DNA of 64,000 nucleotides. Source: Mobula birostris. Lineage: Eukaryota. Positions 4,796-48,268 of the stretch are shown here, in pieces. The position numbers were made by a program, and so were the translations under genes. Each line of letters begins with the position of its first letter. Within the stretch, counting starts at the first letter, position 1. The stretch is from the NCBI RefSeq assembly GCF_030028105.1, contig NC_092383.1, positions 90,663,921-90,727,920 of the forward strand, given 5' to 3'. The notes below the pieces were generated by a model. That model was not told where the DNA came from. It searched no databases and was given only the letters and a program-made list of their open reading frames with translations.

Positions 4796-5529
4796 TACAT
4801 TAATTAAGTTGTTGCTGACTGCTTAAACCACCTGCAGAAAAAAAAGTCGTAACAAAGACTTCCCTTTCATTTTCAAAATTCTTCCCCTTCAGTGATATTA
4901 AATCTGATACTGATCCAGAGGCTTAACCAAGTTTACCAAATAAATCCTATTGACTTTAGAGAGTTCAATTCCCCTGGAAGTCAGAGGCAATCTTTAGCCC
5001 CTCGTCACCCAAATGGAGAACCGTTAGCTCAATCCTTACACAGATTAGCAATTCAACACGGAATGGGTTGAACTGATGTACTATCTTCCTGCTCAAATGG
5101 ATATACGTCTCCTAGTGTGGTTAAGATTGACCATCTAATTCATATCTCAACATTAAAGGGCTGAGAGGAAAATTGGATCAGCCATGATGAAATGGCAGAG
5201 CAGACTCGATGGGCCAAATGGCCTAATTCTGCTCCTATATCTTACAGTCTTAAATAAGCACCTTTAATGCTGAAGCCACAGTGTGAAAATGACTAAGGAG
5301 ACACAAGAGACTGTAGATGCTGAAACCTGGAACAACAAAGAGCTAGAGGTACTTGCTGAATACCTCCAGTGCTCTATGATAGAAAATGACTCCCACCCCA
5401 CTCCCATCAAGCAGCAGCATTTTTGGACATCATTCTGGTTTATGAAGGCCCCACAAAAAGGCAGGATCTTCATTTTCTCTTGAAATAGTTCTTCAAACAC
5501 GTCATATTTCATTCTATATCTCTCTCATC

Positions 5530-5750
5530 ACACAAAATGCTGGAGGAACTCAGCAGGTCAGGCAGCATAAACGGAGGGGAATAAACAGCAGACATTTCGG
5601 GCCAAGACTTTCATCCGCTCCTGAGGAAGGGTCTCAGCCCAAAACGCGGACTGTTTATCCCTCTCCATAGATGCTGCCTGACTGGCTGAGTTCCACCATC
5701 ATTCTGTGTGTGTTGCTCTGGACCTCCAGCATCCAGAGAATCTCTAGTGT
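5530..5750. repeat. inverted pair of Penelope-like termini (palindromic element)
   Basis: 5530-5614 (cacaaaatgctggaggaactcagcaggtcaggcagcat...) is the approximate reverse complement of 5620-5715 (...gatgctgcctgactggctgagttccaccatcattctgtgtgtg). Confidence 0.7.
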
Positions 5751-11518: not shown

Positions 11519-14500
11519 GAGTGGCCAGTATGTTCAGGATTGATTACGGTGAAAGTTGGAGGACAGCGATGCTGGATCGGTATTCAGTAGGTGGAAAGAA
11601 GCACAAGGTCCTGTAGAAAGGGTTGTAACATGGAGGCATTGATTACGAGGAGCCAGTGTGAACAGAGGGGCCAAAAGGCCTAATTCTGCTCCTAGATCTT
11701 ACGGTCTTATGGAAACTGAGTGTGGGAGGTGGCAGTCTGATGCGTTTTTGACGTGAAGTATAACTATTTCTCACCCACTGGTATCTTTATTTAACCATAG
11801 AGCTCGGAGTTGGCCCTTCCAGTACGTCGAGTCACCCCGTCCCAGCAAATCCATGACCCCAATTAACCCTAATGTGACCATGGGACAACTTACAATGACC
11901 AATTAATCTAACTGGTACGCCTTTGGACTGTGGGAGGAAACCGGAGCACCCAGGGAAACCCCATGCTTTCCACAGGGAGGACGTACAGAGACTTCCTTAC
12001 AGAACGGTACCAGAACTGAACTCTGAAACGCCCCAAGCTGCAACAGCATCGCACTAACTGCTACTAACGGGGCTTATTTTGGGATAAAAGGAGAAGAGAA
12101 TGATGGAGGCCTTTTAGAACGGGATCAAAGGATCAAAAAAAGGCTAGAGCAGCAAAGAATATATAGCAGTTCCATTCAAATACAATCCAGGTAGTCCCAC
12201 TTCCCTTTCAGATATTTACACAGCTCTCCTTTGAATGTTGCTAGAATATATAAGATGATAAGAGGCATTGATACAGTGAACAGCCAGTGACCTTTCCCCA
12301 GGGTGGAAATGGCTAATACAGAAAGGGTATCATTTTAAGATGACTGGATGAAACTATTGGGGGGGGGGGTCAGAGGTAGATTCTTATTACACAGAGTGGT
12401 GGGTGCGTGGAACACACCACTGGGGTGGTGTAGAGGCAAATACATTAGGGACATTTAAGAAACTCTTAGATAAGCATGTTACGTTGGCGCCAGAACATGC
12501 AGCACTTGCAGGCTGGCCACATCACATTGTTAGGTTGCGCTGGTCGTTAACACAAATAACACATTTCACTGCGTGTTTCGATGTACGTGTGATAAATAAA
12601 TGAATCTGAATCTCACTGAAAGAAAACGGAGGGATATGCAGGAGCGAAGCGTTAGATTGATCCTGGGGTGGATTAAGAAAAAAATCGGCACCACATCATG
12701 GGCTGAAGGGCCTGTACTCTGCTCTACCACTCCACAGTATGTTCTTTGTTACAATTAAAATCTGCCTTCAGACAATCAACTCTCCACTGTCTTACATTTG
12801 GTTTCTTTGCCAATCACATTCAAGGTCCGCACGTTCTTGACACCAGCTCCCATGCCAAATGGAACAGTTTCCTTCAACCTTTGTGTATCGCTCCATAATT
12901 TTAACTACTTTAATCAAAGTTTCTCACAGTCTCATCCATCCCAAGTAATCAATGCAATATTTCCAGCAGATCTACATTCCTTAAAGTCACTTGCACATGC
13001 CCTCTCCAAAGATTTTACATCTCTCTTAAAACGTAGGGCTGAGAACTGGACTCTAAATTCCATTTGTGGCCAAATCAAGTGATTTTTTTTCTTTGAAGAT
13101 TCATTGTAACTTGGTCACCTTGTTACAGGAGAGACATTGTCAAGCTGGAAAGGATGCAACAGATTCTGCACAGATGCTCAAAATCCAGAACAACACACAC
13201 AAGATTCTGGAAGAACTCAGAAGGTCAGGCAGCGTCTATGGAAGGGAATAAACAGTCGACGTTTCAGGCCAGGACCTGGGTCCTGATGGAGATGCTCAAT
13301 CTGATTTGTATAAACATTACACAAGACAAGCTTCTTCACTGGTCCATGTGGCAAAACCAATACCTGCTTCTAAACAAAAAACTGGAGGCAATCAGTGGGT
13401 CAGGCACCATCTCTGGAGGGAAATGGACAGTCAACATTTCCAGCCCCTCCTCCATCTGCCTGTCATTACCCCCTCCCCATCTGGATCCATCTATCTCGCC
13501 TGATCCTTTCTCCCCATATTTATCATCCCTATGTCTTTCAGTCTACGCAAATTGGCAACTGTCCATTTTTCTCCACAGATGCTGCCTGACACGCTGAGTT
13601 CCTATAGCATTTTCGCTTGTGGTTATATTTCTCATGTCTGCTCCCCAAAGACCAGAAAAACGCACCTTCATAATGCCTACCTGCTATCAAAGGACATATA
13701 CGTATACAGAAAGGTGCTGGAAAAGAGCCAGTTAAATATGATCCCACCCACCCTGCTCATGGACTGTGAGTCCCACTCCCATCAGGGAGGAGGCTACGTA
13801 GTATCCACACCAGGACCACCAGACTCAAAAACAGTTGCTTTCCCCAAGCAGTAAGGAAAACACCTCCACCCACAAACCCACCCCACCACATCCCCAACCA
13901 CCACTACTTTATCGTTTCCTGTCAGTCACCTTATGTACAGCCACTCCTGTGCCTAGCGTCACTTCATGGACATACAGTCAATGAATATAAGCTAGTTTAT
14001 GTATTTAAATTATTGTATTCTTTATCTTATCGTGTTTCTTTTTGTGCTGTAACAATTATTTAGTTCTCCTATACACTTGTGTACTGGAAATGACATTAAA
14101 TAATCTTGAATAATTTGCAAACAAAAAGCTCAGCGCATTCAGGAATTCCACAGCAAGGTGATCAGTATGCATAGTTTCTCCCTGACATTTTGCACTTTCA
14201 GAACTTGCACCTCTGATATAACCACGGACCTCGATGTGGAATATGTTGGCAAATTGCAAAAGAACACCATTCAATGCTAAAAAAAAAGAGAACGTACCCT
14301 CCAAGGCACATTTCACCCTCAAAGGTGGCGGGTTACAGCCACCTGCTCTTTTTTTAAACCAGATCAGTGGGCGCAGCCATTCCACCAAGTCCACGAAAAG
14401 CAGAACGCAAAGGGAAAAAAAATATCTACATCTGTCAACGATTACGGCAGAAAATTCAAAGGATGGTACACTGGCGTCATAAATCACAACTTCCATCGCC

Positions 14501-21567: not shown

Positions 21568-22535
21568 CAGTGGATTCCGGTTAATCGGGCCATCGGTTAA
21601 TCGGGACAGCTGGTTATTTGTGCTAACTCTTAAAGAACAAAAACTAATCGATAGAATAGCTGGGGTTCCCTTCCTTTATTTGGGACACTTTTGCTTAATT
21701 AGGGCAGGTGACTTGCCAGACAGCTTCAAACGAGCGCCAGTCGCCTGCGCTTTTGTGTCCTTAGAGCGAAGAGTTCTTAAAATAGCATCAGTTGCGAGTG
21801 TTTGTGTTCAAAAAGCAGTGATTTTTTGCGAGAAATGAGCAGTAGGACAATTCAGAACTCTTGTTCACTGCGGTTTCAGGCATTCAGTCTCGGAAATGTC
21901 AGGAACGGGGTTTATCTGTTTGCAATGGGACGGCCGCCACACACCGGCACATCGCTTCGACAGGCAGTTAAACCAGGTGAGAGTAGCCGGCGGCCTCATA
22001 CCCCGGTTACCTAGGGCCGTATGCGGAATCAGCTCCGCGGATGAGAGTAACAGTGAGATCCCACGGCCAGGAAGGAGGATCTGCAACGCTCGGTGGAGAG
22101 CCAAGGGCGTGGCGTGAGAGAGGGGTCTCGGTCATCCGCTGCATCCCAGGAAGACACCAGTTGTGATGTCTACTCGTCCCACTGAACCGAACTTTCCACT
22201 CTCCTGCACAGGTTTCCTGTCAACGTCGGATGCGATGGACAACCGCCAGTAGGATTGGTAGTGTTCGAATTTGTTCTATATTTCATTTAAATACATAATT
22301 TGTTACTCCTGACGAAGGGTCTCGGCCTGAAACGTCGACTGTACCTCTTCCTAGAGACGCTGCCTGGCCTGCTGCGTTCACCAGCAACTTTGAAGTATGT
22401 TGCTTGAATTTGTTAGTCAGTTGTATTATTAATATTTTGTAACTATTTCCATGAAACTTCGGCTAATTGGGACAGCCGCTTACTTGGGCCAGAATCTACA
22501 GGTCCTGATGTTTCCCAAATAGCCAAAATCCACTG
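21568..22535 (+). mobile_element. Tigger/pogo-family element (copy 2) with nested insertions
   Basis: TA|CAGTGGATTCCGGTTAATCGGG ... CCCAAATAGCCAAAATCCACTG|TA. Colinear with copy 1 except for inserts at about 21909-22246 and 22309-22406. Confidence 0.8.
22309..22341 (+). ncRNA. minimal hammerhead ribozyme core (Penelope-associated), stem I mostly missing
   Basis: CTGACGA-AGGGTCTCGGCCT-GAAA-CG-TC-GACTG. Core nucleotides are intact, but only 2 bp of stem I can form with the upstream flank. Confidence 0.55.
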
Positions 22536-30635: not shown

Positions 30636-30851
30636 CTATCTCATTCCTGATACAGGAGCCTGCTGCTGTTTCCGAATTTTATTGAACAGCTCCATGTACT
30701 GAACGGCTGTGTCCGTGGGTGTATAAATGCCATCGTGCTTTGTCGAGAATACAGACGGGATTCCAGGGGTATGGTTTCCCATGAAACTCTGCATGAATTC
30801 CATCATGAGATTCCAGCAGTCACTTGACACTATGCAGGGACAGTACTCTAC
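30636..30851 (-). CDS. med20: Mediator complex subunit 20, coding exon 4 (last)
   Basis: ttcCAG acceptor; VEYCPCIVSSDCWNLMMEFMQSFMGNHTPG...QYMELFNKIRKQQQAPVSGMR*, matching the human MED20 C-terminus. 216 nt, phase 0. Confidence 0.96.
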   Translation of the reverse strand, partial: VEYCPCIVSSDCWNLMMEFMQSFMGNHTPGIPSVFSTKHDGIYTPTDTAVQYMELFNKIRKQQQAPVSGMR

Positions 30852-32477: not shown

Positions 32478-33851
32478 GAGCAGAAACACAAAAAATCTAC
32501 AGCACAATACAGGCCCTTCGGCCCACAATGCTGTGCCGAACATGTACTGTACTCACTTTAGAAATGACCTCGGGTTACCCATAGCTCTCTATTTTTCTAA
32601 GCTCCATGTACCTATCCAGGAGTCTCTTAAAAGACCCGATTGTATCCGCCTCCACCACCGTCGCCAGCAGCCCATTCCATGCACTCACCACTCTCTGCGT
32701 AAAAAACCTACCTGACATCTCCTCTGTACCTACTTCCAAGCACCTTAAAACTGTGCCCTCTCATGTTAGTCATTTCAGCCCTGGGAAAAAGCCTCTGACT
32801 ATCTACACGATCAATGCCTCTCATCATCTTATACACCTCTATCAGGTCACCTCTCATCCTCCGTCACTCCAAGGAGAAAAGGCCAAGTTCACTCAAGCTA
32901 TTCTCATAAGGCATGCTCCCCAATCCAGGCAACATCCTTGTAAATCTCCTCTGCACCCTTTCTATAGTTTCCACATCCTTCCTGTAATGAGGTGACCAGA
33001 ACTGAGCACAGTACTCCAAGTGGGGTCTGACCAGGGTCCTATAAAGCTGTAACATTATCTCTCGGCTCTTGAACTCAATTCTATGGTTGACAAAGACCAA
33101 TGCACCGTATGCCTTCTTAACCATACAGTCAACCTGTGAAGCAGCTTTAAGTGTCCTATGGACTCAGACCCTAAGAACCCTCTGATCCTCCACACTGCTA
33201 AGAGTCTTACCATTAATACTACATTTTGCCATCATATTTGACCTATCAAAATGAACCACCTCACACTTATCTGGGTTGAACTCCAACTGCCACTTCTCAG
33301 CCCAGTTTTGCATCCTATCAATGTCCCGCTGTAACCTCTGACAGCCCTGCACAATATCCACAACACTCCCAATCTTTGTGTCATCAGCAAATTTACTAAC
33401 CCATCTCTCCACTTCCTCATTCAGGTCATTTATAAAAATCACGAAGAGTAGGGGTCCTAGAACAGATGGATGAGCCACACCACTGGCCACCAACCTCCAT
33501 GCAGAATATGACCTGTCTACAACCACTCTTTGCCTTCTGTGGGCAAGCCAATTCTGGATCCACAAAGCAAGGTCCCCTTGGATCCCATACCTCCTTACTT
33601 TCTCAATAAGCCTTGCTTGGGGTACCTTATCAAATGCCTTGCTGAAATCCATTTTCACTACATCTATTGCTCTACTTTCATCAATGTGTTTAGTCACAAC
33701 CTCAAAAAATTCAATCCGGTTCATAAGGCACAACCTGCCTTTGACAAAGCCATGCTGACTATTCCTAATCATATTATGCCTCTCCAAATGTTCATAAATC
33801 CTGCCTCTCAGGATCTTCTCCATCAACTTACCAACCACTGAAGTAAGACTA
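32478..33851 (-). mobile_element. CR1/HER1-type LINE, 5'-truncated RT region, nested in a Rex1 element
   Basis: ORFs 33164-33901 and 32864-33124: SLTSVVGKLMEKI, SQHGFVKGR, DFSKAFDKVP, GPLLFVIFINDL, KFADDTK, LYRTLVRPHLEYCAQFWSP. Flanked by the two halves of a plus-strand Rex1 (about 32412-32477 and 33852-34370). A near-identical 3' end is at 41030-41415. Confidence 0.9.
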
Positions 33852-34939: not shown

Positions 34940-35193
34940 CTCAACAGTTATGCCACGGACACTGGGTCCCATGGTAACTGTCCCAACCTTTATCAGAAAG
35001 TCACCATACTGATAGCGAGGCCCTCGGCTTTCAATCTTGTTACTCTTGGCATTCTGGAAAAACCCCTTCAGCTTGACCATGAGCGTGTCGAAGTTTGTGT
35101 CGGCAACCAGGTAAGGCCCGTTTTCAAAAAGTGCAAAGCAGCTAAGAGGATACTCAGTGTTGTGCATAACGTACATGAACTTCGCAGGCTGCC
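34940..35193 (-). CDS. med20: Mediator complex subunit 20, coding exon 3
   Basis: tcatCAG acceptor; (G)[26 protein letters not shown]...[16 protein letters not shown]; GAG|GTAAAT donor. 254 nt; phases fit the neighbouring exons. Confidence 0.96.
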
Positions 35194-35868
35194 CTGATGA
35201 AAGATAGATTCAATATTGTTTATTGTCGTTCTTCAGCACGAGTGTATAGAACAGTGCAACTGAGGAACAAGCCCTTCAGCCCACGTTTTGCCTGTGGAAC
35301 CTGCAGTTAGGCAAGGGTTAAGGACAACATCCAGGCAAGTCGAGCCAGCGGTGTGTAGTCAAACCCAGACAAGGAAGAGCTTTGAAGTGAAACTGCCGGA
35401 GCCAACCTTGCTCATTGCAGACAGACAGGTGGGAATGACTGTGGCACTGTGTAATGAACCTAGAAGAACATAGCTTCCCTTAACACACTTTACACAGTGG
35501 GGCAGAGGCAGATGAGATAAGGACAACAGAAGGATGTAAATTACACCTCACAACTAAAGGATAATTGCTTTACTAACTTCAAAATATCGTTGGTTGTCAG
35601 CTTGAAGCTTTGATTGACTTTTAACACCTTTATTGTAAATGGCAATTGATCTTGCAAGTAAGGAATTCAAACATACATAATTTACCAAATGGCCAATATC
35701 CGTAACTGATAAAGATAATTCTGTATAGAAATAGCAGTTGTCTATGCTGGCTTCACAACAGTATGGTGACAGAGGCCATGCTGTTGTCCTTGTGCACAAG
35801 TAAAATAAAAGTATCACTCACAACACGCTGGAGGAACTCAGCAGGTTGGACAGCATCTGTGGAAATGA

Positions 35869-35908
35869 TCAGTCAACGTTTCGGGCCGGAACCCTTCGTC
35901 AGGACTGA
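35869..35908 (-). ncRNA. minimal type I hammerhead ribozyme motif in a Penelope-like terminus, core intact
   Basis: Minus strand: TCAGTC-CTGACGA-A-GGG TTCCGG CCC-GAAA-CG-TT-GACTGA. This gives a 6-bp stem I, both conserved boxes, stem II, a palindromic AACGTT in place of stem III, and a GUU cleavage triplet. The surrounding repeat spans about 35816-35965. Confidence 0.7.
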
Positions 35909-38900
35909 AGAGGGAAGGGGCAGAGGCCCTGTAAAGAAGGTGGGGGGAGGGTGGGAAGGAGAAGGCTGGTACTCCAGATGTGGCCTAACTAGAGCTTTAA
36001 AAAGCCGTAACGTAACTTTGACTCTCGAACTCAGTGTCGTGACTAATAAGGACAAGCATGCCATATTTCCCTCCTAACCATTCTATCAACCTCTGTAGCC
36101 ACTTCCAGCGAGTTATGAACTTGGACTGCAATGTCCCACTGCTCATTAACATCTTTTCCATAACAGTGGACCGTCTCTTTACATTTTACCTACCCAGGTG
36201 CAACACTTCATATTTGGTTGGGTTAAACTCCATCTGCCATTTCTACCACCTATCTGCAACTGATCTATACTCTGCTGTATTCTTTGCCAGTCTTCTATGC
36301 TATCCACAACACCACCAATCGTTGTATCATCTGCAAACCTACTAACATACCATCTACATTTTCATACAGGTTTACATATATCATAAGCAGGAAGGAATCC
36401 CAGTACAGATCCCTACAGAACACCACTATTCACAGACCTCCATCTAGAATAAATCCCTTTGACAACCACCCTGTCTTCTATAGGCAAGCCAGTTCTGAAT
36501 CCAAAGAGCCAATTCACCATCGATCCCATGCACCTTAATCTTTCAGATGAGAAACAGAGAGATTGTTATTCCAGATCAGATACAGCATAAAAAGAAAGAC
36601 ACAATAAGGATAAAAAAAATATATAAATATAAAAGCAATCCTATAAAACATAACGTACAGTAACTGTTTTGTGGCCATATATACATAGATTAGCTTATAT
36701 GGACTGAATGTATGTACATAAAGTGAGGCTTTAGGTTTATAAAGCTGCCAGGAGAGAGGCATCGGAGCCAATGTGCTCCACTGGGGCAGCGTGGCGCCTC
36801 ATCCAGAGTGGAATTGATGCTGCACCCCCCCAGTGTTCGTTTGGCAGAAGCAAAGCTCTGTTGTGGTCAACTGCAGATTTCTGTGGCATCGATGGCCTTG
36901 TCCATCGCGTGGCTGTATCTTACTGATACCTTAATATGCTTGCTATTTTGTACTTGCTATGTGTGCCTTGTGCTGTGTGTGACTGTTAGTACTGAGTTTT
37001 GTATCTTGGCCCCAGAGTAATGATGCCTCGTTTGGCTACATGAGTATTCATGTATGGCTGAATGACAATTAAAACTTGAACTGAATTGAAGAAATAGTAG
37101 GTTAGTGACTACGCCAGTGCAGGTATGAGATGTGGACTGTAAACATAAAGTGGCAGTGCATGGGGGGGTCAGGGGGATGAAGGGTGCTGAGGGGCTGAGG
37201 ACAGGAAGATGGATCTCATTAGAAGGAATGGTCGCAGGATGCACGAAGGGTTAAACCCTCTTTGTACTTTCAACCCCATAGAGGTCACATTCAATCCAGC
37301 CACCGCTTCTAACAAAGACGCAGTAAATTGCCCACCATTGCACACACAGAATCTGAGTCTTCGCGTAGCGGGGCACTGTCATCAGATATTTATTGACCCA
37401 CTTAGTCTCCTTTGAAGGCATATGTTCAAGCTGGCTTCAGGTTCCATTAGAAATGATCACCGCTGGTACCTCGACCAGATGGTCATTCTTTGTATGCGCA
37501 TTTCAACATTCTATCAGCTCTCCAGTTATATCACACCAAGTGACGCAGTGTCCCACTGCACATTTTCCATTGAATAAGTCAAAAACATCAGGATAATTCC
37601 CCCGTTCTGCTCAGGAACTCTGGCCAAATGCTGACATTTCTCCCTACTATGATTTCTGGCTGAACTTCACTTGTATTGAAGGGTGAGAGGATGCAGTGAA
37701 CTGGAAACTTAGATAAGACAAAAATACACAACAGGAGAATTCTTCTGCAGAATACTTCAGTAAACATATATTTAAGATGTGACTAAGTATTGGTGAATCA
37801 GACTTCAAAGGACAAAGAGCAAAATGTCCAAACAGGAAGAGAATTCTACCACCTAGAGGGAAGATCAAAGCCTTGCTTTAACAAGTCACCTCCTAGGACA
37901 TGCAATAGTGAGCAGTGTGTAGCTTCACATATGGCACACACATGTATACTATTTCAGGACAGGAGCAGGCATATTCTCTCTCTCCAGGATGGGGACATTT
38001 GAGGCAATTTCAGTGACCCTAGTTGGAACACTGAAACAGGAGTTACACAAGCCTTCCCGTCATTCAGCTGGATGCAATGAGGTTGCAGCTGATTTATTTA
38101 TGATAATTATCTATCCATCTTGGATATGCATAAAAGCAGTCACTCGCAGTTTTATTTTATCCTGACACAGTATAGAACAGGCCCTTCCGACCTTACGAGC
38201 TGCACTGCCCAGCAATCCCCTGATTTAATGGTAGCCCAACCACAGGACAAGTTACAATGACCAATTAACCTACCAACTGGTACATGTTTGGACTGTGGGA
38301 GGAAACCAGAGTACCTGGACGAAACCCACGCAGTCACGGGGAGAAACGTACCAGCTCCTAACAGACAGCGGTGGGAATTGAACCCAGGTTGCTGGTACTA
38401 TAAAGTGTTGTGCTAACCACTACCACTACACTACCTTCCTGTCTCCACTTATTGAGAAAGAAAGTGCCAGATTTTGTGTGTGAAGAAACTAACTATAAAT
38501 GGCGGGTTCTAATTTTACTGTTTGGGCACCACATTCTACAATCCTCTTATCAGAGGGGACAGCTCCTCTCTATCTCACCATTATATCTCTTAATCATCTT
38601 AAGCACTTAAATTAGGTCATCTCTTAATCCTATATAGTAAAGAGAATTCAGGCCTGTCTATGCAACATGCTCCTAATTTAATCCTTAAAGTGTTGGAATC
38701 TGCAATGCATCCATTCTGACAGTAAGATTACCCATTCCAAAATACAATACCCCCCAAATGAACACCATTCTCAACACTGTATGTAAAGGCTAATGAAAGC
38801 TTTGTAATCCTGTTACACAACTGATATCCTATTGTATTTAACTCCCTGAAATAAAGAGTCCATTAGCTTTTTAAATAACTCTTAACATTGCAACAAGCAA

Positions 38901-40756
38901 TTGCTATCACCGTACAAAAGTGTGTTAAATTTACACAATAATATGAATTTTGAGTATTCCAACTGGTTGCATGCATCACAGGTTGAAACACTTAAGCCCA
39001 GGAATAGAAAGGACTGTGGATACAGCCCATCACAAGCTCTCCACCCCTGAGCACCTTTACATGGAGCACTGCCACAAGAAAGCAGAACCCATCATCAAGG
39101 ACCCCACCATCCAGGCCATGCTCTCTTCTGGTTACTACCATTAGGCAGGAAGCCTTAGGTTCCATACCTCCAGGTTCAAGAACAGTTATTACCTTGCTAC
39201 AGGGATTCCCAATCTGCGGTCCATGAACTCCTTGTTTAATGTATTGGTCCATGGCATAAAAAAGGGTGTGAACCTCTGCCTTACAATCAAGTTCCTGAAC
39301 TGGTGTGAAAAAACTTCACTCACCTCAACTCTCAGATTTCACAACCTACAGACTCATTTTCAAGGACTCTACTCATGTTCTCAGTATTATTTATTTTTCA
39401 TTTACATAGTATGTCTTTTTTGCACATTGGTTGTTTGTCAGCCTTTATGTACAGTTTTTAAAATAAATGTCTTTTTTTTCCTGTATACGTTTGCAAGAAA
39501 ATGAATCTCATTTGGTGATACATTTGCACTTTGATAATAAATTTACTTTGAACTTTGATACATAAATTCAAATAAAGTTCCAGGATCTGTAACATGATTC
39601 TCATCACCAACATCAGAAGGTATATTCAAAATTCAAAGTAAGTTTACTATCAAAGTACTCGAATGTTAGCTTATACTACCCTGAGATTCACTTTCTTGTG
39701 GGCATTCACAGTAAATAAAAAGAAACACAACAGAACCAATGAAAAACCACACGACAGAGATAGACGAACCAGTGTACAAAAAAAAATGTGCAAATATAAA
39801 AAGAAAGAAATAATAGTAATAAATAAGCAATAAATATCAAGAACACAAGTTGCAGTCCTTAAAAGTGAGTCCATAGTCAAAAGTGATTCCTACCATCAGG
39901 AGGAGGAGGTACACACTCAAGGAGCAGCTTCTTCCCCACTGCTATCGGATTTCTGAACGGTCCGTGAACACTCTCTCACTATTCCTCTATTTATTTGTTA
40001 TTGCGACTGGCAGTAATTTTGTATGCCTTGCGCTGTACTGCTGCTACGAGGCCACTCAGCTGATTCAGCCAGTGTGTGAGTTGGATGTTTTATAATCTAA
40101 GTGACCGAAACTTCACTGACTTTATAAATACTCCCAATTTGGTATCGCTGAACAGCTGCCATTGACCACATCATTTGCAGAATAGGGTGGAAAAGAAAAC
40201 ATATCCAAACCCTGGCCCAGCTCCCGGTCTCCTCTAGTTTGCTTGAGATCAGGGCGGCAAGGTCAAAATTATTCTTTTGTTTTATCCTTCAACTCTGTAA
40301 ACATCACACATTAACAGGAGACTAAAGAAACTTGGCATGACCCCTTTGATCCTCATGAACTTTTATCGATGCACCATAGAAAGCATCCTGTCTGGAAGTC
40401 TCACAGCTTGGTACAGCAACCTCTCAGCCCAGAGTTGTGGGCACAGCTCAGCACATCAGAGAATCCAGCCTCCCCTACATGGACTCTATCTTCACCTCGC
40501 TTCTTCGGTAAAGCAGCCACTATAATTAACCCTGGACATTCTCTTCTCCCCCAAATAGGGTTGAAACAATTTCAGCCTCAGCAAAATGACAGAATGGACT
40601 CAATGGGCTGAATGGCCTAATACTGCACCCACATCTTATCGTCATTTAGTTTTCACTTGAAACGCTAGCTCTATTGCTCTTTCCATAGATACAGCCAAAC
40701 TCGATAACTTCCAGCATCTTTTTTTATTCTACCCACTGCTATTCCTCGATAGTTAC

Positions 40757-43919: not shown

Positions 43920-43933
43920 CAGGTGACCCCCAT
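43920..43933 (-). CDS. med20: Mediator complex subunit 20, coding exon 1 (MGVT-C)
   Basis: ATG GGG GTC ACC TG|GTGAG inside a CpG island. Matches the human N-terminus MGVTC. Total CDS is 14+152+254+216=636 nt, giving 211 aa. Confidence 0.93.
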
Positions 43934-44017: not shown

Positions 44018-44270
44018 CCGCCGTGAGGCCAGGCCGGGCCGTGTCCGTTTCGGTCACAGCGCCCCCTCCAACTGGGAGGAGTAACTGCTTCTCCAGCCAA
44101 ACCCGCCGCCGCCAGACCTGGCCGTGTGTGTATTGGTCATAGCGCCCCCTGCAGATGGGAGGACCAACTGCTTCTTCAGTCAAACCCGCCGTGAGGCCAG
44201 ACCAAAATCTCTATCGGTTACCGCGCCGCCACGGGCCAGGAGGACTAACCACTTCTTCAACCAAACCCGC
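44018..44270. repeat. three-copy ~82 bp tandem repeat in the med20 promoter/CpG island with CTCF-like motifs
   Basis: AAACCCGC recurs at 44099, 44182 and 44263. GCGCCCCCT occurs at 44059 and 44142, with a diverged GCGCCGCCA at 44223 (spacings 83 and 81). Confidence 0.8.
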
Positions 44271-45049: not shown

Positions 45050-46560
45050 AAACTTTGTTAAAGCGTCAGGAAGGTGGGCTGGGGTCAGATGTCTGGGAAA
45101 TGGAGGAGATGTGGATGAGGGCAGCATCGTTGGCAGAGGGAGGGAAAACCCCATTCTCTGAAAGAGGGACATGTCAGATGTTTGGAATGGAAAGCTTCGT
45201 TCTGGAAACAGATGTGGCGAAAATGAAGGGGATGAGGAAAGGGAATAGGATTTTTTACGAGTGGCTGGGAAGGAAGAGGGATCGTCGTGATAGCTGAGAA
45301 AGTCAGCGGATTCATAAAAGATTTCAGGAGACAGTCTTTCTTGAATTGAATTGATTTTATTACTTACATCCTTCATATACATGAGGAGTAAAAATCTTCA
45401 CGTCATGACTCCATCTGAATGTGCAATGTGCAATTTATGGTAATTTGTAATAAATGGTATATACAATAGGACAGTCAATATAACATAGAAATACAGTTGC
45501 GTCTGTATGAGTTAATCAGTCTGATGGCCTGGTGGAGTAACCTGTCCCAGAGCCTGTTGGTCCTGGCTTTTATGCTGTGATACCACTTCCTGGATGGTAG
45601 CAGCTGGAACAGTTTGTGGTTGGGGTGACTCAGGTCTCCAGTGATCCTTCGGGCCCTTTTTACACACCTGTCTCTGTAAATGTTCTGAATAGTGTGAAGT
45701 TCACATCTACAGTTACATTGGGCTGCCCGCACCACTCTCTGCAGAGACCTGCGATTGGGGGAAGTACAGTTCCCATACCAGGCAGTGATGCAGCCAGTCA
45801 GATGCTCTCAATTGTGCCCCTGTAGAAAGTTCTTAAATTTGGGGGGCCCACACCAAACTTCTTCAACCATCTGAGGTGAAAGAGGCATTGATGTGCCTTT
45901 TTCACCACAGAAAGGGGAGAGAAGTGTCTGGGAAGGACCAAGTAAATTTGAGGGCAGAGTGGAAGACTGAGGCAAAGTTGATGAAAATAACAAATTTGGC
46001 ATGTGTACATGAAGCAGCATTAATGTAATTGTCAATATAGCAGAGGAAAATTTGGGAAGTGTTACCAGGGTAGGCTTGGAACATAGGCTGTTCCACATAG
46101 CCAATGAAATGGCAGGCACAGCTAGGGCCTATGTGAGTTCCCACAAGGCTGGAGAAAGTGGGTGAAACTAAAAGAGGAATTGTTGAGGGTGAGGAAGAGT
46201 TCCACCAGATGGAGGAAGGTGGTGGTGGAGGGGAACTGGTTCGAAAGTGGTGAGATTTTAAGATCTTCCTGATGGGGGTACAAGTGTATAGGGACGGGAC
46301 ATCCACTATGAAAATAAGGTGACCAGGAATTGAAAGTGATTGAAGAAATCGAGAGCATGGATGTAGGTGGGAAGGGACTGAGCATGGAATTAAGATGGAA
46401 TGAGCACTCAGCAGGTCAGGCAGAATTTGTGGAAGTTAACATTTAACATTTTGGGTTCTGGAGCTTTTGCAAAAGAAGAAAAACAAGTTAGAGACACAAG
46501 AGACAGCTGATGCTGGAATCTAGAACAACAAACACACTGCTGGAGGAACAGCATTTGTGG
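45050..46560 (-). mobile_element. Penelope-like retroelement, degenerate RT, interrupted by a Rex1 insertion
   Basis: Minus-strand frames give MDVPSLYT, HLVELFLTLNNSSF, GPSCACHFIGYVEQ, FLCYIDNY, FHSALKFTW...SLPFL (45907-46385), continuing as KNPIPF..LHFRHIC...GFPS (45050-45340). These are Penelope RT and thumb motifs. Terminal-type repeat at about 46407-46560. Confidence 0.75.
45341..45906 (-). mobile_element. Rex1/Babar 3' fragment with (ATTGA)n tail
   Basis: KKAHQCLFHLRWLKKFG...FYRGTIESI...RARRITGDLSHPNHKLFQLLPS...HQAIRLIN. Highly similar to the copy at 49004-49614. Confidence 0.85.
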
Positions 46561-47519: not shown

Positions 47520-48268
47520 GTGAGTGTTTTGAGTCCGGGGCGGAGGCGAGAGCGAGAAAGCACACACACAAAATGCTGAAGGAACGCGGCAGGTCAGGCA
47601 GCATCCGATGAAACGTCAACCATTTATTCACTTCTGTAGGTGCTGCCTGACCTACTGAGTTCCTCCAGCACCGTGTGTGTGTGTGTGTGTTAGTTCAAGA
47701 TTTCCAGCATCTGCAGAGTTGTGTCACTATGGGAAGGATGTCTTAAAACGAAGAGGGCGTTAAAACCGATTTATAAGGATGTTATCAGGGCTGAAGAGAT
47801 TGGGATATAAGGAGAGACCGGACTGTTTCCCTGGAGTGTAGGAGGATGAGAGCACCTCACAGAGATCTGTAAATTCGTGAAGGGAAAAGACATTTTCAAA
47901 GGATTGGGTGTCAACATCTGGACGGAACACACAAAATGCTGGAGGAACTCAGCAGGGTTAAAGAGACGACCCCCCCCCCTCCACCCCAAAGGGTATTGGC
48001 CCGAAAACGTCAACTGCACTTTTTTTCTATGGATGCTGCCTGGCCTGCTGAGTTCCTTCAGCATTCTGTGTGTGTTGTTCTGGGTTTCCGGTATCTACAG
48101 GTTTTCTCTTGTTTGCAACATCTGGATGGGATAGGCTTAAATTTGGGGAGGAAGGGATCCTGAGGAAAACACGGAGCGATGCATATATTGAATGAGCTGC
48201 CTGAAGAAGTGTTTGAGGCAGGTACATTGAGATATTTGGGGAGCTATACTAATGGGGGAGGTTTAGAG

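Follow-up and report, generated by a model that had tools for sequence, protein, structure and literature searches.

The question raised by this locus is whether a minimal hammerhead ribozyme motif, which lies in an intron of a host gene of the ray Mobula birostris, acts on the RNA of that gene or is carried there as a passenger of a mobile element. The window, i.e. the whole stretch of DNA that was analysed, is 64 kb long and carries the motif on the minus strand, in the sense orientation of the med20 gene. The initial annotation had described the motif as an intact minimal hammerhead, sense to the med20 pre-mRNA and of Penelope origin, and had proposed that it could form part of a host-RNA processing or circularisation system.

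The host gene is encoded on the minus strand, with exon 1 ending at 43920 (as read from the sequence), exon 2 at 40908-40756, exon 3 at 35192-34937 and exon 4 starting at 30848; the closest MED20 match found was that of a skate (94%). The intron concerned is given below.

35193 to 40755, minus strand: med20 intron 2, the host intron (contigs join 40756 to 35192; GT and AG ends; Pfam Med20 on the flanking exons)

The motif is situated in this intron approx. 680 nt before the acceptor of exon 3. Exons 2, 3 and 4 were joined in the contigs of all four runs, which are presumed to be RNA and come from two studies. No accumulation of ends was visible in these contigs; since contigs carry no information on RNA ends, partial cleavage would be compatible with the splicing seen in these runs. 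The window contains 19 remnants of the element end, one of them inside the med20 transcript; among these, no second remnant, intact or not, was found in that transcript. The genes med20 (43933) and bysl (about 47240) are in a head-to-head arrangement and separated by about 3.3 kb, in which a Penelope RT fossil and further fragments of repeats are situated, and a two-copy, 83-bp, GC-rich tandem repeat (44028-44191) lies just upstream of the med20 start codon.

The hammerhead, read on the minus strand from 35908 to 35869, is UCAGUC-CUGACGA-A-GGGU-UCCG-GCCC-GAAA-CG-UU-GACUGA, and it was the sole motif on either strand of the window to pass a general descriptor of minimal hammerheads. Since this descriptor gave 22 matches in 1.58 Mb of genome DNA and 0 in the reversed control, the motif is not a product of chance. 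Its parts are the following.

35903 to 35908, minus strand: stem I 5' arm, UCAGUC (sequence and fold)
35895 to 35902, minus strand: core box C3-A9 (CUGACGA) and the extra A between 9 and 10.1 (sequence)
35883 to 35894, minus strand: stem II, four base pairs GGGU/GCCC with the loop UCCG and G10.1-C11.1 (fold)
35875 to 35882, minus strand: G12 A13 A14, the loopless palindromic stem III half ACGU, and U17, which is C17 in the family (sequence)
35869 to 35874, minus strand: stem I 3' arm, GACUGA (sequence and fold)

All core residues are present (C3 U4 G5 A6 N7 G8 A9, G12 A13 A14 A15.1, U16.1 and H17, the last being U), together with the extra nucleotide between 9 and 10.1 and the G10.1-C11.1 pair. 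Positions 15.2-16.2 form a palindrome without a loop 3, and the closure is of type I, via the 6-bp stem I. The cut is predicted 3' of 35875, i.e. between 35875 and 35874. The earlier reading of the catalytic boxes and of this predicted cut was confirmed from the sequence, and so was the assignment as a minimal type I hammerhead with an extra A after A9, which matches the minimal type (min-HHR) of the Penelope-like elements (PLEs). Other details had to be redrawn. Stem II, described as GGG/CCC, is present and is better drawn with four base pairs and the loop UCCG. The palindrome had been given as AACGUU; the working palindrome consists of ACGU (A15.1-U16.1), with A14 as the outer A and residue 17 as the last U, and since the family has C at this residue, AACGUU has arisen by decay. 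In the window copy stem I is a perfect 6-bp helix, which is not the rule of the family, as the nucleotide at 35908 is A in 13 of 20 sister copies and that at 35871 is C in 10 of 20. The latter change gives the pseudo-LTRs (pLTRs) of those ten sisters a stem I in which three pairs are followed by an A-C mismatch. As judged by reading, the stem changes between subfamilies are one-sided, C-G becoming U-G in stem I and G-C becoming G-U in stem II, with one mismatch.

The motif is real and sense in intron 2, and "intact" overstated its condition, because residue 17 has decayed: it is U in the window copy and C in 16 of the 20 sisters, the change being at a CpG. As its cleavage triplet the window copy has GUU in place of the GUC of the family, so that it is not pristine and shows CpG decay; outside the variable columns, four of its six differences from the majority of the sisters are at CpG sites. 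According to published work, cleavage is fastest with GUC and GUA, and GUU can still be cleaved (PMC3138052). In Rfam nothing reached the gathering score in the window and two chance lncRNA matches (E 1.4) fell over the motif; this silence is expected from a motif without stem III and counts neither for nor against it.

The surroundings of the motif, and the other remnants in the window that bear on its origin, are listed here.

35815 to 35971, minus strand: pLTR, the 5'-truncated 3' end of an endonuclease-positive PLE, 157 bp, without the optional 30-40 bp tail (boundaries from similarity)
35972 to 36565, minus strand: older, decayed LINE fragment, which we take to be CR1-like, directly upstream of the 157-bp piece with TAC shared at the junction (RT-like translations; 67% match to a LINE at 33011-33142)
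22301 to 22401, plus strand: sister copy outside med20, core intact with G10.1-U11.1, stem I 5' arm lost (fails the general descriptor)
45908 to 46327, minus strand: fragment of a Penelope RT, decayed and from an older subfamily, situated upstream of med20 exon 1 (tblastn with the natural sister ORF P0099, 44% identity, E 3e-28)

The 157-bp piece (35971-35815) showed 96-99% identity to the best 39 other genomic places scored and a mean identity of 91% when compared with the pLTRs of 20 copies that had been selected through their RT-endonuclease ORF. Longer copies extend upstream into this ORF, in which RT is followed by GIY-YIG. Pfam RVT_1 and GIY-YIG were obtained in this order (E 1e-6 and 0.03, neither score reaching the curated cut-off), and the GIY-YIG motif is visible in the translation; a sequence search of the PDB with the element ORF returned no match. 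The linker between the RT and the endonuclease (EN) reads CERKCYTC, also CKCKCYTC, and a CX2-5CxxC linker at this place is the signature of Neptune/Nematis (PMC8557442). Judged by domain order and linker, the source is an endonuclease-positive PLE of the Neptune/Nematis type, Neptune and Nematis being left unsplit. The Penelope origin claimed for the motif holds, since the same motif was present on the ORF strand, in the pLTR, in 20 of the 20 copies selected by their ORF; it lies 252-275 nt past the ORF stop in 15 of the 16 copies in which the stop was anchored. Inverted 5' pieces, found in 5 of the 20 ORF-selected copies, and the extra tail of 30-40 bp, found in 116 of 340 sampled copies, are both hallmarks of PLEs (PMC8557442).

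The six related motifs noted earlier in the window (4660, 5620, 13253, 22309, 47990 and 58118) are real and decayed and belong to the 19 remnants. A Penelope RT fossil had been placed at 45-46.4 kb; tblastn confirmed it for 46327-45908, and over the rest of that interval no match to the Penelope ORF was obtained. Pfam did not recognise the Penelope fossil frames of the window, which tblastn with the natural sister ORF did. Some of the old remnants stand back to back as inverted pairs (5529-5715, 13374-13614, 47561-47684 and 47927-48077), a typical footprint of PLE insertion. Elsewhere in the genome, one Penelope copy (L187, G000:C3:171005740-171014568) is flanked on both sides by a long minisatellite array, as if it had been inserted into it. 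Three same-strand pairs of copies were considered as a tandem element and rejected, being separate short insertions.

The family is very large. With three mutually exclusive exact patterns, each of which gave 0 in its reversed control, at least 44,069 exact core-intact copies were counted in the 4.0-Gb ray genome, namely 11,271 with G-C and GUC, 29,918 with G-U and GUC and 2,880 with G-C and GUU; the very large number of half-sites suspected earlier is thereby borne out. In 1.58 Mb, a profile search detected 340 ends of the element, a density of 216 per Mb, and if that sample is typical, the genome total is on the order of 0.9 million remnants. In the commonest exact form (29,918 copies; e.g. 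L012:5620-5670) G10.1-U11.1 replaces G-C while the neighbouring CpGs are retained, so that it resembles a change in a young master element more than decay.

In our opinion the locus is, with high probability, a lone 5'-truncated PLE end, sense in med20 intron 2, the hammerhead of which likely served the parent element and is here likely an inert or nearly inert passenger. In published experiments with PLE hammerheads no cleavage was obtained from a single min-HHR and weak cleavage from dimers (PMC4209133), and in the dimer model two half-sites in tandem pLTRs complete stem III (PMC4209133; review PMC6765202). The dependence on dimers that was earlier assumed for the motif agrees with this model. 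Nine Xenopus dimers were assayed in another study and one of them cleaved (bioRxiv 10.64898/2026.07.22.740005). The ribozyme of an anole PLE required PLE protein for cleavage, none of the RNA-seq reads had an end at its site, and cutting was dispensable for insertion in vitro (PMC11167929). By analogy with this work on other PLEs, tandem pLTRs in the parent element would have let two half-sites pair via ACGU and complete stem III, and the RNA of the element would have been cut weakly, probably with the help of its own protein. After insertion, C17 of the window copy has been lost to CpG decay, no partner is present in its own transcript and the predicted fold is a rod in which the core is buried; the copy decays as the DNA around it does, and splicing removes the host intron.

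The rod follows from nearest-neighbour energies with tertiary contacts omitted, which give the monomer a predicted fold of -14.8 kcal/mol as a rod versus -12.4 for the open core, and -23.1 kcal/mol for the predicted active dimer versus -29.6 for two rods. The core GACG (35900-35897; C at position 7) is complementary to the CGUC/CGUU before the cut site (35878-35875), therefore the monomer is predicted to form a self-blocked rod, and an off state may thus be built into the motif. A solitary intronic copy with GUU is most probably silent.

The best of the competing explanations, which we regard as unlikely, holds that core-intact intronic copies cut the host pre-mRNA at a low rate, in trans or aided by protein, and that the weak cost is removed by selection, the window copy being among the weaker ones. 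Partners would be available in the at least 44,069 exact core-intact copies, the anole case provides a PLE protein that turns the ribozyme on (PMC11167929), and Xenopus retrozymes are depleted in introns (bioRxiv 10.64898/2026.07.22.740005); against this stands the weakness of a 4-bp intermolecular stem III. The orientation of the copies was determined in an intron sample of eight 200-kb stretches from 7 very large genes, with the strand taken from LamG and CUB exons (1,575,296 bases without N); these genes are probably neuronal, unlike housekeeping genes such as med20. An orientation bias in introns, the lack of which had been set beforehand as a ground for rejecting a host effect, was not observed over all copies: 167 were sense and 173 antisense in known-strand introns (p=0.79; 95% interval of the sense share 0.44-0.55). 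The copies which span the ribozyme gave 117 sense to 118 antisense, and the decayed or partial ones 159:159. The intact copies showed 8 sense versus 14 antisense in the fetched 1.58 Mb, and together with the exact motifs listed in the C1 gene outside the fetched spans 14:26 (p=0.08; p=0.09 versus the decayed copies), which points in the direction of low-rate cutting. However, copies are born intact, so that selection at the time of insertion should mark the old copies as well, and those are evenly divided. By divergence quartile the sense to antisense counts were 26:32, 27:31, 32:28 and 32:27, with 53:63, a slight antisense lean, in the youngest half. Control LINEs in the same introns (75:71 and 28:35) were also flat, thus the sample is without a positive control for bias.

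The core had been expected to be conserved above its flanks, and it decays like the tail, with 182 mismatches in 2088 (8.7%) versus 620 in 6237 (9.9%), p=0.10. This comparison covers nine non-CpG core columns and 29 tail columns against the subfamily majority, after removal of those tail columns in which the mismatch exceeded 30% in at least one subfamily. Sense and antisense cores did not differ (p=0.44). At the CpG sites of the core about 27-38% of 235 copies deviate, and only 22 of these copies pass the descriptor. The decay of the ribozyme core across the copies is neutral, and an effect on host introns, if there is one, is weak in the 1.58-Mb sample.

The starts of truncated copies bear on the same explanation. 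In one subfamily, genome-wide, 196 copies start exactly at the predicted cut site versus 61 at +3 and 117 at +6, a raw excess in favour of cutting. However, among 100 cut-site starts listed, 43 were recognised by eye as self-homology joints, of which the 26 TCAG joints fold back to the element's own stem I 5' arm and the 17 TCCT joints are deletions across a shared GAC; with these joints removed, the scaled number of cut-site starts is about 112, which is near the value of the +6 control. There is no peak at the site in the intron sample, where just 3 of 105 truncated copies begin no more than 2 nt away from it. Self-homology joints could arise with or without cleavage, and the sequence of those that fold back to the stem I 5' arm suggests template switching on stem I complementarity. 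The general form of the explanation, in which more than 44,000 half-ribozymes cut ray pre-mRNAs at a low rate given element protein or partner RNA and leave behind intact intronic copies that are weakly depleted in the sense orientation, as well as cut-site joints, seems to us improbable. If true, low-rate cutting would be the first population-genetic sign of PLE hammerheads acting on host RNA in vivo.

Domestication of the window copy for med20 splicing, RNA processing or circle formation, in the manner of the conserved amniote intronic hammerheads, is very improbable. It could appeal to the sense orientation, the full 6-bp stem I, the presence of all core residues, the distance of 680 nt to the acceptor and the precedent of RECK and other intronic hammerheads (PMC6155905). 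Sense orientation, however, is common to half of all copies, and the copy is young, as judged by its identity to other copies, and its decay is ordinary, with the CpG changes described above. It has neither a stem III nor a partner in cis, circle formation needs two cuts where one site is present, and at the family level the core is not conserved beyond the neutral expectation. The proposed host-RNA processing or circularisation system is therefore not supported, as the med20 transcript holds no second copy, the intron is spliced, and neither an orientation bias over all copies nor extra conservation of the core was found.

An origin from a non-autonomous tandem retrozyme family replicating as circular RNA can be dismissed as extremely improbable: animal retrozymes do derive from PLE pLTRs and are present in the one chondrichthyan sampled (bioRxiv 10.64898/2026.07.22.740005), but no tandem array exists at the locus, the same-strand intact neighbours in the 1.58-Mb sample are 6-131 kb apart, and longer copies run directly into the PLE ORF. 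A tandem-unit retrozyme identity of the window copy itself is contradicted by its single hammerhead without tandem units. Among the matches listed for 20 long copies, no direct repeat of the element's own pLTR was found.

As it is, the window copy alone matters little and adds to the known copies of a motif already described. The family, with its tens of thousands of nearly identical copies, is useful as a test bed for the in vivo cutting of PLE hammerheads genome-wide, a question that the papers cited here leave open. The hammerhead class, the extra nucleotide, the dimer model and the dispersal as single copies are already published. Apart from the preprint, in which one chondrichthyan is included, we found no publication on the PLE hammerheads of rays or sharks, and subscription journals, Repbase or supplements may hold the family.

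The motif resembles the metazoan PLE min-HHRs (Cervera and De la Pena 2014, PMC4209133) in its type I closure, its loopless palindromic 15.2-16.2, the extra nucleotide between 9 and 10.1, which is typical of that group, its short stem I, its place in the pLTR and its occurrence mostly as single dispersed copies of truncated elements. It differs from them in the ray host, in the commonest ray form, which has G10.1-U11.1 instead of the highly conserved G-C, and in a stem II of only 4 bp; the at least 44,069 exact ray copies compare with about 4,000 in the coelacanth and 9,000 in Xenopus, counted with different descriptors. The element is like the Neptune/Nematis EN+ PLEs (Craig et al. 2021, PMC8557442) in having RT and then a C-terminal GIY-YIG, with the CX2-5CxxC linker, and the ray family shares their 5' truncation, inverted 5' pieces and optional tail; unlike in those elements, a full-length tandem copy was not found among the 20 ray copies examined. 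The ribozyme of the anole Poseidon element PAc (Frangieh et al. 2024, PMC11167929) is also a vertebrate PLE hammerhead located just upstream of two alternative element ends; it belongs to the Poseidon clade and was tested in vitro, where it proved to be assisted by protein and dispensable for insertion, whereas the ray motif is known from sequence alone. With the animal non-LTR retrozymes (bioRxiv 10.64898/2026.07.22.740005) the motif shares the type I hammerhead and the derivation from PLE pLTRs, but those are defined by tandem units and the window copy is a single truncated PLE end. Finally, the amniote intronic hammerheads such as RECK (PMC6155905) are likewise of type I and intronic; they are conserved across species, whereas the window copy is a young, neutrally decaying repeat without stem III.
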